A stretch of DNA of 64,000 nucleotides, from positions 50,559 to 114,558 of the forward strand of contig CAVVXU010000004.1 of assembly GCA_963752325.1 (NCBI GenBank), given 5' to 3'. The DNA is from an uncultured Alphaproteobacteria bacterium (lineage in GTDB: Bacteria; Pseudomonadota; Alphaproteobacteria; Geminicoccales; Geminicoccaceae). A program made the position numbers and the translations under genes. Position 1 is the first letter of the stretch. The number at the start of each line of letters is the position of its first letter. The notes beneath the pieces were generated by a model. The model did not search any database. It worked only from the letters and a program-made list of their open reading frames with translations, and was not told the DNA's origin. Below, one piece after another: positions 36,949 through 48,395 of this stretch.

Positions 36949-37959
36949 TCAGAATCCCGTCGCGGGCTCGCGCCAGGAATCGAGCACGCGCAGATAGTTG
37001 GCGCGCTCGAAGGCTGTAGGGTCGGGGACGTGACGCTGGCTCATGGCGCCCTTCATCTGTGCCACCGAGGCATAGCCGCGGCGCTCCATCCAGGCGGCTA
37101 GGCCGTCGCGCAGTGCGCCGAGCCGGGCCGGTCCCTCGCGCAGCAGAGCCGAGGTGGTCATGACCGCATCGGCACCGGAGAGGATGTATTTGACGACCTC
37201 GTCGGGCCCCTGGACGCCTGTGCTGGCGGCGAGCGAGGCCTGGATGCGGCCGTGCAGCACGGCGATCCAGAGAAGCGGCAGCCGAATCTCCGAGGACCTG
37301 CTGAGCTCGAGCGTGGGGGCCACCTCGAGCGCGTCGAGATCGAGGTCCGGCTGATAGAAGCGGTTGAAGAGGACGAGGCCGTTGGCTCCGGCCTCGACCA
37401 GTCGTCGGGCTAGATTGCCGAATGCGCTGTAGAAGGGGCCGAGCTTGACGGCCACCGGGATCGAGACGGCCCGCCTGACGGCCAGGAGAATGTCGAGACA
37501 ACGCTGCTCGACGGCGGCGGACGAGGTGTCGAGGTCGGCCGGGATGTGAAAGATGTTGAGCTCGATGGCGGCGGCCCCGGCCTCCTGCATGAGGGCCGCA
37601 TGCTCGGTCCAGCCTTCGCTCGTGACGCCGTTCAGGCTTGCGATGATGGGAACGCCGGTGCTGTGCGCGGCCTGCCCAAGCAGCTCCAGATAGGGCCCTG
37701 GGCCGATGCGGCTGTCCTCGACGGTTGGGAAGTAGTCGAGGGCCTCGCCGAAGCTCTCGGTGCCAGCGCTGGTCAGCCGCTCGAGAGCGGCGCGCTCCTG
37801 CCGGATCTGCTCCTCGAACAGCGAGAAGAGGACGATGGCGGCAGCCCCGCCATCCTCCAGCCGCCTTATCCCGTCGAGCGTGCGTGAGAGGGGGGAGGCC
37901 GAGGCCACGACAGGATGGGCGAGCGGCAGGCCGAGATAGGTGGTGCGGAGGTCGACCAT
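36949..37959 (-). CDS. dihydroorotate-dehydrogenase-like FMN protein (PyrD/DPD domain IV fold) with no ferredoxin domain
   Basis: ATG37959 with GAGGAG 6 nt upstream, 10 nt after the nifJ stop. ..LGLPLAHPVVASASPLS.., ..IIASLNG.., ..AIELNI.., ..VAVKLGP.., ..LFNRF.., ..STGVQGPDEVVKYILSGADAVMT.. form the class 1 DHODH-like TIM barrel pattern. Confidence 0.85.
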   Translation of the reverse strand: MVDLRTTYLGLPLAHPVVASASPLSRTLDGIRRLEDGGAAAIVLFSLFEEQIRQERAALERLTSAGTESFGEALDYFPTVEDSRIGPGPYLELLGQAAHSTGVPIIASLNGVTSEGWTEHAALMQEAGAAAIELNIFHIPADLDTSSAAVEQRCLDILLAVRRAVSIPVAVKLGPFYSAFGNLARRLVEAGANGLVLFNRFYQPDLDLDALEVAPTLELSRSSEIRLPLLWIAVLHGRIQASLAASTGVQGPDEVVKYILSGADAVMTTSALLREGPARLGALRDGLAAWMERRGYASVAQMKGAMSQRHVPDPTAFERANYLRVLDSWREPATGF

Positions 37960-37969
37960 CGAAGGCTCC

Positions 37970-40900
37970 TCAGGCCGGGTGCTCGCCACGCGTCGCCATG
38001 ACCTCGTAGAGGTCCCAGGTCCGACGCACCTGCTCTTCGGCCCGGGCCATCAGGCTCTCGGCCTCGGCCGGATTGGTGAGCGACAGCATGCGGTAGCGCA
38101 GCTCGTTGTTGGCGTAGTCGCGGAACGGCACGGACGGGCGTTGGGAGTCGAGGACGAGCGGCGGCACGCCGCTCTCTCTGAGCGCCGGGTTGTAGCGGAA
38201 GAGCGGCCAGTAGCCGGAATGGACGGCCAGCGACTGCTGCTTCAGGCCGAAGCGCATGTCGATGCCGTGCGCGATGCAGTGGCTGTAGGCGAGGATGAGC
38301 GACGGGCCGGTCCAGGCCTCGGCCTCACGAAACGCCAGAAGCGTCTGCTGCGGATTGCCGCCCATGGCGACCTGGGCCACGTACACATTGCCGTAGCTGA
38401 TCGCCTGGAGCGCCAGGTCCTTCTTGCCGACATGCTTGCCGGCGTTCGCGAACTTGGCGACGGCGGCCATGGGTGTGGCCTTGGACGCCTGGCCGCCGGT
38501 GTTGGAATAGACCTCGGTGTCGAGGACCAGGACGTTGACGTCGCGCCCGGTCGAGAGGACGTGGTCGAGGCCGCCTGCGCCGATGTCGTAGGCCCAGCCG
38601 TCGCCGCCGATCAGCCATACGCTGCGCCGGACGAGATGGTCCGCGACGGACAGGAGGTGCCGCGCCCTGTCGTCGTCGAGATCGGCCAGCTTCTGGCGCA
38701 GCACCGCCATCTTCTCCCGGACCGCGCGAACCTGGCCCTCGGTCCGCTGCGGCGCTGTGAGGATCGCCTCGACCAGCTCCGCGCTCAGGGCCGGTGCCAG
38801 CTCGCGGGCCAGCGCCTGGGCCATCGCCCTGTGCTTGTCCGCGGCGAGCCGCATGCCGAGGCCGAACTCGGCGTTGTCCTCGAAGAGCGAGTTCGACCAG
38901 GCGGGGCCGCGGCCCTCGGCGTTGCGGGCCCAGGGGGTCGTCGGCAGGTTGCCGCCATAGATCGAGGAACAGCCGGTGGCGTTGGCGACGATCATCCGGT
39001 CGCCGAAGAGCTGCGTCGCGAGCTTGAGATAGGGCGTCTCGCCACAGCCGGCGCAGGCGCCAGAGAACTCGAAGAGCGGCTCGAGGAACTGCGCGCCGCG
39101 CACGGTTGCGAAGTCGACCCGGCCACGGTCGTTGACCGGTAGGGTCTCGAAGAACCGCTCATTGGTACGCTCGGTCTCGAGAAGCGGCTCCTTCTCGGCC
39201 ATGTTGATGGCCCGCCGGTCGGCCCGCTCCTTGCTGCGGACGGGGCAGACCTCGACGCAGAGCCCGCAGCCGGTGCAGTCCTCGACATAGATCTGAAGCG
39301 TGTAGCGCGTATCGGGAAAGCCGCGCGCGTCGATCGGCGCCGACTTGAAGCCTTCGGGCGCCACCTCGAGCTCGGCCTCGTTGTAGAACTTCGAGCGGAT
39401 GACGGCGTGCGGGCAGACGAAGCTGCAATGGCCGCACTGGATGCACAAGGAGGGCTCCCAGACCGGCACGGTCAGCGAGACGCTGCGCTTTTCGAACGCC
39501 GTGGTGCCCGAGGGCCACGTTCCGTCCGCCGGCAGTGCGCTCACCGGCAGATCGTCGCCGTGTCCGGCGAGCATGAGACCCGTCACCTTCTGGACGAAGG
39601 CGGGCGCGCTGGAGGGGACAAGGGGTAGGCGAGGGGCGCCCTCGCCGGCACCCGCCGGGACCGTCACGCGATGGAGATGCGCGAGCGCCGCATCGACCGC
39701 CGCGAAGTTACGCTCGACTGTCTTCTTGCCCTTCTTCCCGTAGCTCTTCTCGATCGCGGCCTTGATGTGGGCGATCGCCTCCTCGCGCGGCAGGACGCCG
39801 GAGATGGCGAAGAAGCAGGTCTGCATGATCGTGTTGATCTGCCCGCCCATGCCGGCCTGCCGCGCCACCTCGTAGGCGTCGATGACGTGAAGCTCGAGCC
39901 CCTTCGAGACGATCGTCTCCTGCGCCTCGCGCGGCATCTTGGCCCAGACCTCGTCCGGGCCCCAGGGACTGTTCAGGAGAAACACGGCACCCGGGGCTGC
40001 CGCCTCCAGGACGTCGATCTTCTCGAGGAAGCCGAACTGGTGGCAGGCGACGAAGCTCGCCTGCTGAATCAGATAGGTCGAGCGGATGGGCCTCAGCCCG
40101 AAGCGCAGATGCGAGACCGTGCGCGACCCCGATTTCTTGGAATCGTAGACGAAATAGCCCTGGGCGAAGAGATTGGTGTCCCCGCCGATGATCTTGATGC
40201 TGTTCTTGTTCGCTCCGACCGTGCCGTCGGCACCGAGGCCGAAGAACATGGCGCGCACGACCTCGGGCGGCTCGATGATGAAGTCGGGGTCGACCTCGAG
40301 GCTGGTGTGGGCGAGGTCATCCCTGATACCGACGGTGAAGTGGCGCTTCGGCCGATCCTTGTGGAGCTCGTCCAGCACCGCCAGGACCATGGCCGGGGTG
40401 AACTCCTTGGACGAGAGGCCGTAGCGGCCGCCGATCACACGCGGCATCGCCCGCACGCCGTCGGCCGCAGCCTCGGCCAGCGATGCCACCACGTCGAGAT
40501 AGAGGGGCTCGCCCGTGGCACCCGGCTCCTTCGTGCGATCGAGCACGGCCACGTGGCGGACGGAGGCGGGCAGGACCTCCAGGAGATGCGCTGCGGAGAA
40601 CGGCCTGTAGAGATGGACCTGGACGACGCCCACCTTCGCCCCCTGCGCCGCCAGATGCTCGACCGTCTCGCGCGCAGCCTCGGCGCCCGAGCCCATCAAG
40701 ACAAGCACCCGCTCTGCCGCGGGATCGCCCCAATAGTCGAAGAGCCGGTAGCGCCGGCCGGTGAGTTGCGCGAACCGTTCCATCGCCTTTTCGACGATCG
40801 CCGGCGTCGCGGCATAGAAGGGGTTCACCGTCTCGCGCGCCTGAAAGAAGACGTCGGGGTTCTGGGCGGTACCGCGGATGAAAGGGTTGTCGGGGTTCAG

Positions 40901-47922: not shown

Positions 47923-47924
47923 AG

Positions 47925-48395
47925 GTGGGAGCCCTGGGCCGGAGGCTGGTCATCGGCATCGGCAATCCCGATCGCGGCGACGACGGCGTCGGACGTGCGG
48001 TCATCCACAAGCTGCACGGGCGCGTTCCGGCCGACGTCACCCTGCTGGAGCAAGAAGGAGAGGCTGCGACGCTCGTCGGCTGGCTCGAGGGCGCGGCAAC
48101 GGCGCTCATCATCGACGCGGCGATCACGGGGGCTGCGCCCGGCAGCGTGACGCGGCTCGACGCCAATACCGGACCGGTGCCGGTGGGGCTGGGCTCCATG
48201 TCCTCGCACGGCCTCGGCGTCGCTCAGGCGATCGAGCTTGCCCGCATCCTGGGCGTGCTGCCGCCATGCTGCATCGTGCTGGCGATCGAGGCCGCGTCGT
48301 TCGAGCCGGGTGCCACGCTCTCGCCCGCCGTCGAGGCCGCAGCTGAGGATGCGGCGGCTATGATCCTCAGCGAGCTCGCGGCCTCGCCAGGCTGA
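47925..48395 (+). CDS. hydrogenase maturation endopeptidase (HycI/HoxW family)
   Basis: GTG47925 lies 3 nt after the hyhL stop. LVIGIGNPDRGDDGVG is the family signature GxGNxxxxDDGxG. ..SSHGLG.. is present. 156 aa. Confidence 0.85.
   Translation: MGALGRRLVIGIGNPDRGDDGVGRAVIHKLHGRVPADVTLLEQEGEAATLVGWLEGAATALIIDAAITGAAPGSVTRLDANTGPVPVGLGSMSSHGLGVAQAIELARILGVLPPCCIVLAIEAASFEPGATLSPAVEAAAEDAAAMILSELAASPG

Follow-up and report, generated by a model that had tools for sequence, protein, structure and literature searches.

Few hydrogenases are as widespread among soil and aquatic bacteria as the group 3b [NiFe]-hydrogenases, and to our knowledge, the physiological electron donors of this group are essentially unknown outside Mycobacterium smegmatis. 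The cytosolic, NAD(P)-linked enzyme of this species, Hyh (Hyd3), is induced by O2 limitation and evolves H2 in hypoxia to dispose of reductant, a precedent that an earlier reading of the DNA analyzed here, made from the letters alone (hereafter the sequence-only reading), had cited correctly. Here, we analyze a 64-kb stretch (the window; 68% G+C) from an uncultured soil alphaproteobacterium, whose nearest named relatives are metagenome-assembled genomes (MAGs) of Geminicoccaceae, Bauldia, and Devosia. At positions 36949-48395, the window holds two divergent operons: on the minus strand, the genes for a predicted pyruvate:ferredoxin/flavodoxin oxidoreductase (PFOR) and two flavoproteins, referred to below as the trio, and on the plus strand, those for a predicted group 3b hydrogenase (hyh). 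Our favored reading, to which we give a probability of about one half, is that the two operons share one FNR/FixK-type activator site and form a low-oxygen redox module running from pyruvate through NAD(P)H to H2; judged from the genes, the link from pyruvate to hydrogen is plausible.

The locus resembles several described systems in part. The M. smegmatis enzyme belongs to the same class but is regulated by DosR, whereas the window carries an FNR/FixK-type box. The six genes of hyh, including one for a cyclic nucleotide (cNMP)-binding domain, follow each other in the same order in an actinobacterial cassette carried by a Rhodococcus plasmid, whose HyhL is 57% identical to that of the window; however, the neighbors of this cassette are ppsA, pfkB, and genes for triacylglycerol synthases and a universal stress protein (USP), with no PFOR trio. 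The archaeal sulfhydrogenases I and II of Pyrococcus furiosus and Thermococcus (PDB 9nez, 9e15, and 5yxy) share the alpha-beta-gamma-delta subunit set and are the top matches of the window subunits, although the window proteins score under the equivalog cutoffs of the sulfhydrogenase models. The P. furiosus enzyme is thought to use H2 for making NADPH, and we know of no cNMP-domain gene in archaeal sulfhydrogenase operons.

For the pairing with a PFOR, the closest precedent is cyanobacterial. There, nifJ co-occurs, and sometimes clusters, with hox, which has been interpreted as fermentative electron disposal (PMC2974642). The idea of a PFOR feeding a soluble bidirectional [NiFe]-hydrogenase of NAD(P) type had thus already been derived from this clustering. 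The Hox enzyme nevertheless belongs to another subgroup (3d), has the diaphorase HoxEFU where the window has HyhBG, and has no described NfnB-like partner. We regard the locus as a known kind of system and the pairing as modestly new. The pyruvate:NADP+ oxidoreductase (PNO) of Euglena and Cryptosporidium, in which a PFOR is wired to an NADP+-reducing flavoprotein, is a functional analog of the role proposed here for the trio; unlike the window proteins, which are separate, belong to unrelated flavoprotein families, and are predicted to have this activity, it is a single fusion with a cytochrome P450 reductase-type domain. Our literature searches found no description of the trio or of its linkage to group 3b enzymes.

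Gene content of the two operons

Gene calls were made by Pfam and NCBIfam profile searches of the open reading frames (ORFs) of the window. Every hydrogenase and PFOR gene listed by the sequence-only reading was recovered where that reading had placed it, including the AsrA-like beta and AsrB-like gamma subunits alongside the small and large subunits, and the maturation protease (Table 1). On both strands, the genes are tightly packed, with start and stop codons that overlap or abut.

Table 1. Features of the window with their coordinates, strand, and the match or analysis behind each call. GC3, G+C content at third codon positions.
Feature	Position	Strand	Basis
DHODH-like TIM-barrel flavoprotein, 336 aa; last gene of operon	36949-37959	-	NF005741 445 bits (cutoff 303)
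NifJ-type single-polypeptide PFOR	37970-41575	-	TIGR02176 1770 bits (cutoff 911)
NfnB/GltD-like NAD(P)H-binding FAD protein, 543 aa; first gene of operon	41575-43206	-	NF009410 784 bits (cutoff 516)
FNR/FixK-type palindrome TTGATCGAGATCAA	43260-43273	.	TTGAT-N4-ATCAA, in the 209-bp divergent intergenic region
hyhB, beta subunit (AsrA-like, multi-[4Fe-4S])	43416-44550	+	Fer4_22 110 bits; ShyB/HydB/AsrA top NCBIfam matches
cNMP-binding-domain gene, 153 aa	44547-45008	+	PF00027 43 bits
hyhG, gamma subunit (AsrB/PyrK-like FAD/NAD(P), C-terminal [2Fe-2S])	44986-45856	+	NAD_binding_1 56 bits
hyhS, small subunit	45858-46643	+	Oxidored_q6; ShyD/HydD top NCBIfam matches
hyhL, [NiFe] large subunit, 429 aa	46633-47922	+	RICGIC, DPCISCATH, ShyA/HydA matches
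Hydrogenase maturation endopeptidase	47925-48395	+	TIGR00072 114 bits (cutoff 47); HycI Pfam match
TauD	2071-3135		Pfam survey
tRNA-Ser(gga)	6750-6837		Rfam/ARAGORN
ISXO2-like transposase	23425-24165		
PhyH fragment, truncated	33299-33763		20 bits versus cutoff 22 (sub-threshold)
Phage-type integrase fragment, Arm-binding and central domains only	34976-35617		
tRNA-Leu(taa)	54893-54977		Rfam/ARAGORN
uxuA, one-base frame break	~625		GC3 model and Pfam
lepA, one-base frame break	~4670		P-loop N terminus in another frame than the rest of the housekeeping GTPase
ABC transporter, 4-5 frame switches	51743-52442		GC3 model and Pfam
Class III cyclase, one-base frame break	~55533		GC3 model and Pfam

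The Ni-Fe ligand motifs of HyhL are intact (C63 and C66 in the first, C414 and C417 in the second), in agreement with the sequence-only reading, and the protein has a C-terminal extension of nine residues. The endopeptidase gene starts with a GTG 2 nt past the hyhL stop and is unusually diverged, at 86% nucleotide identity to L001, one of the close relatives of this locus. HyhL is 99% identical to the protein P0001; an exact-sequence look-up returned no match for the window HyhL and none for P0241. The start of hyhB was inferred from the N termini of relatives to be the GTG at 43416. The ATG at 43293 chosen by gene callers was rejected, because homolog N termini align five codons upstream of LLVVQ and because this ATG lies only 20 nt from the FNR-type box.

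For all four subunits, the best-scoring models are those of sulfhydrogenases (ShyABCD/HydABGD). AsrA and AsrB are further matches of the beta and gamma subunits, and the top NCBIfam matches of HyhG are PRK08345, AsrB, HydG, and ShyC. Because these scores fall under the equivalog cutoffs, we place the window hydrogenase in a distant bacterial clade. In phmmer searches of the PDB, HyhL scored highest against group 3b enzymes (212 bits for the P. furiosus sulfhydrogenase I alpha subunit and 205 for the Thermococcus kodakarensis cytosolic enzyme), as compared to 161 bits for Mvh (3c), 143 for Hox (3d), and 135 for Frh (3a). Its NCBIfam scores followed the same pattern, with 283 for ShyA and 226 for HydA versus 135 for both VhuA and FrhA. 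The same cassette is present in L016, with a HyhL 69% identical to that of the window; L016 appears, from its matching locus-tag prefix, to be the genome whose HyhL was classed as group 3b with HydDB (PMC12319191). By the proxy of these scores, supported by the L016 homolog, the window enzyme is predicted to be a group 3b hydrogenase of the sulfhydrogenase type, as the sequence-only reading had assigned it.

Between hyhB and hyhG lies a gene that the sequence-only reading had overlooked, whose GTG start overlaps the hyhB stop (GTGA). Its product consists of a cyclic-nucleotide-binding-like domain only and is not a transcription factor, as it has no helix-turn-helix. A survey with HyhL as the query gave 80 hyh loci, each from a different species, and 81 loci were scanned with L001 included; the gene has the same place in essentially all 80, across phyla. 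In the aligned loci, the canonical phosphate-binding arginine and glutamate are conserved at only 57 and 62%, respectively, and three cysteines (Cys28, Cys111, and Cys116) at 92 to 99%, a hint that the protein may act in redox chemistry or bind metal or a ligand other than cNMP. The gene has been noted in the 3b clusters of methanotrophs as "HoxI" by analogy (PMC12319191) and in Frankia as a small regulator. As with HoxI of the Cupriavidus necator soluble hydrogenase, its predicted product is a small subunit with a cNMP domain in a [NiFe]-hydrogenase linked to NAD(P), but the 3b protein differs in its three conserved cysteines and degenerate phosphate-binding cassette. A tblastn search with the protein gave no match to Cupriavidus plasmids at E ≤ 1e-6, in a collection whose inclusion of pHG1 is unverified. 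A class III adenylate/guanylate cyclase gene (55213-56394), kept in L001 and in a second close relative, L091, lies ~7 kb downstream of the hydrogenase genes, and in L088, another class III cyclase gene is ~4 kb away from a PFOR trio that stands alone. A link between these cyclases and the cNMP-fold subunit is speculative.

The minus-strand operon had been described as a PFOR with an NAD(P)-linked flavoprotein. Both are present, but a third gene, for a dihydroorotate dehydrogenase (DHODH)-like protein, had been missed, so that this arm has three genes. The middle gene is predicted to encode a NifJ-type PFOR; its product covers positions 2 to 1166 of the 1167 positions of the TIGR02176 model and has the Pfam domains POR_N, PFOR_II, POR, and EKR, a 2x[4Fe-4S] domain, and TPP_enzyme_C. 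The nifJ ATG overlaps the stop of the preceding gltD-like gene (TGATG). The ATG of the DHODH-like gene, at 37959, follows a GGAG Shine-Dalgarno sequence 6 nt upstream and is separated from the nifJ stop by a 10-nt spacer.

The product of the gltD-like gene combines an N-terminal 2x[4Fe-4S] domain (Fer4_20), an FAD/NAD(P) Rossmann region, and a C-terminal PorD-like 2x[4Fe-4S] ferredoxin domain, the latter matched by the NCBIfam PorD models at residues 484 to 541. Its best solved relatives are StnC and NfnB/NfnI-alpha (304 to 215 bits), with which it aligns over the FAD/NADPH and 2x[4Fe-4S] region. We assign it to the NF009410 family of NfnB/GltD-like Fe-S flavoproteins, with cofactor use as predicted, and refer to it as NfnB-like. 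The DHODH-like protein scored only 39 to 63 bits against true PyrD models (cutoffs of 269 to 433), 58 to 63 bits at most against PyrD/PreA models, far under their cutoffs, and 24.6 bits against Pfam DHO_dh (cutoff of 27). Because it misses the PyrD cutoffs and passes that of NF005741, it was assigned to this uncharacterized subfamily rather than to PyrD; no solved structure matched it at E ≤ 1e-5. By Pfam and NCBIfam, the two flavoproteins together have the domain set of dihydropyrimidine dehydrogenase (PreT-PreA), and the DHODH-like protein may form a second redox branch. In contrast to NfnAB and PreT-PreA, the trio lacks a PyrK-like NfnA partner, has the additional PorD-like ferredoxin domain, and has its flavoprotein genes on either side of that for PFOR; moreover, the DHODH-like protein scores far under the PyrD and PreA cutoffs. 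A homolog 48% identical to the DHODH-like protein is encoded without PFOR alongside on the Acaryochloris marina plasmid pREB4 (L084, 108427-121008), among pfk, hypD, adh, hypE, and ppsA, which ties this uncharacterized family to hydrogenase and fermentation genes.

The FNR-type box and the recurrence of the pairing

The palindrome TTGATCGAGATCAA in the intergenic region between the gltD-like gene and hyhB is the sole perfect FNR/FixK-type palindrome in the window, in which 0.45 matches with up to one mismatch would be expected. The distance from its center to the gltD-like start is 60 nt and that to the hyhB GTG 150 nt, with the box upstream of both genes, and the box of L001 is identical. Of 24 proteobacterial loci, 13 have a box with up to one mismatch at 64 to 250 nt upstream of hyhB, against a background of 0.019 per region (binomial P ~ 1e-16). 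In the nonproteobacterial phyla, there was no box within ~250 nt of hyhB, and three loci had a one-mismatch match ~400 nt upstream. Two of six loci that carry the trio without hyh (L087 and L090) have a box at -65/-70 of the gltD-like gene, and a third box among these six lies upstream of a truncated gene call. Each operon type thus tends to carry its own box, and here one site can serve both. The sharing of an FNR-type box proposed by the sequence-only reading is therefore borne out at the level of prediction: the TTGAT-N4-ATCAA box is a predicted FNR/FixK site shared by both operons and conserved in orthologous promoters, upstream of hyhB as well as of the trio.

No sigma-70 consensus promoter was detected in the intergenic region, which fits an activator-dependent promoter without proving one. 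Scans of the intergenic region and of both operon ends revealed no intrinsic terminator, and the Rfam search of the window found two tRNAs only and no leader RNA 5' of hyhB. The Pfam survey of predicted window genes, which did not include the ORFs at 6673-7876 and 31416-32158, contained no Crp/Fnr-family regulator.

The six-gene hyh cassette is kept in essentially all 80 survey loci, from Alphaproteobacteria to Acidobacteriota, Ignavibacteria, Nitrospinota, Planctomycetota, and Actinomycetota. A nifJ-type PFOR gene lies within 10 kb of it in 10 of the 81 loci scanned (L001 and nine of the survey loci), where ~0.8 would be expected by chance (P ~ 1e-8). These loci span three orientations and five bacterial classes. 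The PFOR gene is divergent in L001 and L003, convergent and downstream in L004 (L009, at a contig end, shows the DHODH-like gene only at this place), and upstream on the same strand in L007 and L014, with the trio and hyh ~200 bp apart. In other phyla, it neighbors hyh in L061 (Acidimicrobiia), L035 (Acidobacteriaceae), L047 (Anaerolineae), and L056 (Chitinophagales). The physical pairing on which the sequence-only reading was built is thus nonrandom.

Unsupervised clustering of the neighboring ORFs ranked hyp genes first (24 loci), followed, among specific families, by PFOR (11 loci). A third neighbor family, an ADP-forming acetyl-CoA synthetase-like or Pat-like protein, was present in seven loci from Acidobacteriota, Nitrospinota, and deltaproteobacterial MAGs (L035, L041, L042, L044, L045, L054, and L066); the L035 protein has a C-terminal GNAT domain and is thus Pat-like. 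The acetyl-CoA synthetase-like gene is sometimes accompanied by pyruvate oxidoreductase (POR) subunit genes. Together, the PFOR and acetyl-CoA synthetase-like neighbors point to pyruvate fermentation.

Frame breaks, the hyhS start, and the surrounding sequence

A GC3-based six-frame Viterbi model placed frame switches at 43544/43545 and 45690/45691. The hyhB frame changes at codon 47 through an extra base at 43545/43546, and that of hyhG changes at codon 235, upstream of the cluster cysteines, through an extra base at 45691. Alignment showed that both insertions are missing from L001 (94% identical) and L091 (98.2% identical), in which hyhB (418 aa as called) and hyhG (287 aa) are intact. Homopolymer slips were rejected as the cause, since the alignment shows C insertions at nonhomopolymer sites.

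Breaks of the same kind occur in uxuA, lepA, the ABC transporter gene, and the cyclase gene, amounting to ~10 per 64-kb window. At this rate, 0.78 breaks would be expected in the 5-kb hyh operon (P = 0.18), and the two observed are thus unremarkable. Seven of the ~10 breaks are located at 43.5 to 55.6 kb, suggesting that the long-read assembly had low coverage or was poorly polished in this part. The relatives have breaks of their own, in the gltD-like and DHODH-like genes of L001 and in the PFOR gene of L091, which is in four pieces. Although L091 is ~98% identical to the window, 48 net frame-changing indel groups separate the two over 21 kb.

After deletion of the two extra bases, we checked the alignment columns conserved at ≥95%. 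The conserved cysteines were all present (15/15 in HyhB, 5/5 in HyhG, 12/12 in HyhS, and 6/6 in HyhL), as were 82 of 84 conserved columns in HyhB, 68 of 69 in HyhG, all 84 in HyhS, and 153 of 154 in HyhL. The ratio of nonsynonymous to synonymous divergence (dN/dS) of the hyh genes versus L001 is 0.05 to 0.21, consistent with purifying selection on all of them. Given relatives without the insertions, the same lesions elsewhere, the retained residues, and the low dN/dS, the frameshifts of hyhB and hyhG are very probably assembly errors and not decay; without the two extra bases, the operon is predicted to encode an intact hydrogenase. The sequence-only reading had thus correctly seen one frameshift in each gene of the given sequence but had counted them as a biological caveat, which they do not appear to be. 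In long-read metagenome assemblies like this one, apparent pseudogenes should not be taken as biology.

The small-subunit gene has no ATG, GTG, or TTG 5' of its N-terminal CxxC. Because Cys17 and Cys20 must be included, hyhS must start at the CTG at 45858, which lies 6 nt after AGGAGA, at the position of the ATG or GTG of most relatives. This CTG is kept in the window, L001, L091, and L004 (HyhL 85% identical), and nearly all other aligned loci have an ATG or GTG at the same position or within a few codons. A conserved noncanonical CTG start is the simplest reading of this pattern. Gene callers start hyhS at an internal GTG (45960), giving a protein of 227 aa, and so automated calls in this clade drop two cluster cysteines.

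Divergence from L001 is mosaic. Synonymous divergence (dS) is 0.22 to 0.27 for the PFOR trio, 0.03 to 0.07 for hyhB to hyhL, 0.40 for the endopeptidase gene, and 0.06 to 0.08 for the AP_endonuc_2 and ABC genes downstream; this pattern across 36949-51423 suggests that recombination has occurred inside the module. Synteny with L001 extends exactly to 36945, and a LysR gene takes over in L001 from there. The PhyH fragment, the integrase fragment, and the ISXO2-like transposase gene all lie to the left of the module. The integrase fragment and the tRNA-Leu gene led us to consider a tRNA-flanked genomic island, which was dropped, as no att-like direct repeats were found. The description of the window as full of O2-dependent enzymes proved to be overstated, as we found one TauD and one truncated, sub-threshold PhyH fragment; the argument for an aerobic lifestyle drawn from it is weakened and rests on the one TauD.

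A predicted route from pyruvate to hydrogen and its alternatives

In the favored scheme, falling O2 would cause FNR/FixK to turn both operons on. PFOR would convert pyruvate to acetyl-CoA and CO2, and the low-potential electrons would travel over the clusters of the NfnB-like protein (PorD-like and Fer4_20) and through FAD to NADP+, so that the trio would act as a multi-subunit PNO. HyhG would reoxidize the NAD(P)H, and HyhSL would release the electrons as H2. As has been proposed for M. smegmatis Hyh, this would allow substrate-level ATP formation to go on in the absence of a terminal acceptor; maturation would rely on hyp genes elsewhere in the genome. A parallel comes from Nitrospira marina, in which both a POR and a group 3b enzyme increase when O2 is low.

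Several points weigh against this scheme. The two partners are most often found apart: 70 of the 80 hyh loci have no PFOR gene within 10 kb, the trio occurs in the same gene order without hyh in all four loci sampled via the DHODH-like protein and in both regions examined on Methylovirgula and Phenylobacterium plasmids, where its neighbors are ccoNOQP or genes for alcohol dehydrogenase (ADH), glyceraldehyde-3-phosphate dehydrogenase (GAPDH), and USP, and HyhL is encoded in none of ten trio-carrying plasmid records. The trio is thus a free-standing module, usually without hyh, as hyh is usually without PFOR, and the "dedicated" electron source of the sequence-only reading was too strong a term. 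Thermodynamically, producing H2 from NAD(P)H is uphill unless the partial pressure of H2 is low, and the scheme does not account for the DHODH-like flavoprotein. Maturation genes are a further difficulty. In many relatives, hypAFCDE lies directly 3' of the protease gene, whereas tblastn at E ≤ 1e-5 gave no match to HypA, HypF, HypC, HypD, or HypE in the window, the flanks of L001 and L091 have no hyp or nickel-transporter genes either, and the Pfam survey of the window contained no nickel-transporter family, in line with what the sequence-only reading had reported. Frankia 3b clusters also lack hyp genes and depend on other clusters. Last, hyhB and hyhG are frameshifted in the deposited sequence, and the organism is known solely from metagenome assemblies.

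Alternatively, the two operons may be co-regulated neighbors and not a pathway, brought together by regulon clustering or co-transfer within an FNR/FixK low-oxygen regulon. The hydrogenase would then mainly take up H2 for NAD(P)H or balance pyridine nucleotides, and the trio would feed other acceptors. We regard this as somewhat unlikely but a serious candidate. In its favor, the trio can stand alone with its own FNR-type box, as in L087 and L090, or alone beside ccoNOQP or ADH/GAPDH genes on plasmids, and most hyh cassettes have no PFOR nearby. The mosaic divergence from L001, with its much higher dS in the trio than in hyh, suggests separate histories, and group 3b enzymes are bidirectional and have been discussed as H2-driven NAD(P)H generators in alphaproteobacterial methanotrophs (PMC12319191). 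Co-regulation only is harder to square with a PFOR adjacency that is far above chance in three orientations and five bacterial classes, with the close same-strand arrangement of trio and hyh in L007 and L014, and with the recurrent ADP-forming acetyl-CoA synthetase-like neighbors, which point to pyruvate fermentation.

If the operons do form a pathway, electrons might pass from PFOR through ferredoxin, flavodoxin, or HyhB to the hydrogenase with no free NAD(P)H, the NfnB-like/DHODH-like pair forming a bifurcating or confurcating side branch. The 15 conserved cysteines of HyhB are consistent with several clusters, the NfnB-like protein is nearest to the bifurcating NfnB/StnC subunits, and the pair has the dihydropyrimidine dehydrogenase domain set. 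In addition, the Synechocystis Hox enzyme is reportedly reduced by ferredoxin or flavodoxin. However, the module contains no ferredoxin or flavodoxin gene, and the FAD/NAD(P)-binding domain of HyhG is standard; nothing here tells the direct route from that through NAD(P)H. We consider direct coupling quite improbable. Least probable by far is that the hydrogenase operon is decaying, with real frameshifts, a real start defect in hyhS, and a lineage that has lost its hyp genes: the two frameshifts and missing ATG, GTG, or TTG of the given sequence, the absence of hyp genes within 64 kb, and the 3b operons reported as pseudogenized in some Frankia strains fit this, but it is opposed by the like insertions elsewhere in the window at an unremarkable rate, relatives that lack both insertions and have their own in other genes, the low dN/dS and invariant residues, and a CTG start kept in four genomes behind a perfect Shine-Dalgarno sequence.

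Beyond the favored scheme, a bolder proposal is that the trio is a previously uncharacterized bacterial multi-subunit PNO, possibly flavin-based and confurcating via the DHODH-like FMN site. During hypoxia, under FNR control, it would serve some of the aerobes of several phyla as the physiological source of electrons for their group 3b hydrogenases, and the universally conserved cysteine-bearing cNMP-fold subunit would be a redox or ligand sensor or an additional electron-transfer subunit. We hold this to be unlikely in its full form. For the family, the recurrent PFOR linkage and the FNR-type boxes on both partners nevertheless suggest a concrete route, from pyruvate through NADPH to H2, by which aerobes may balance their redox state in hypoxia. 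Two unstudied proteins also stand out, the cNMP-fold subunit of group 3b enzymes and the DHODH-like protein encoded with NifJ.

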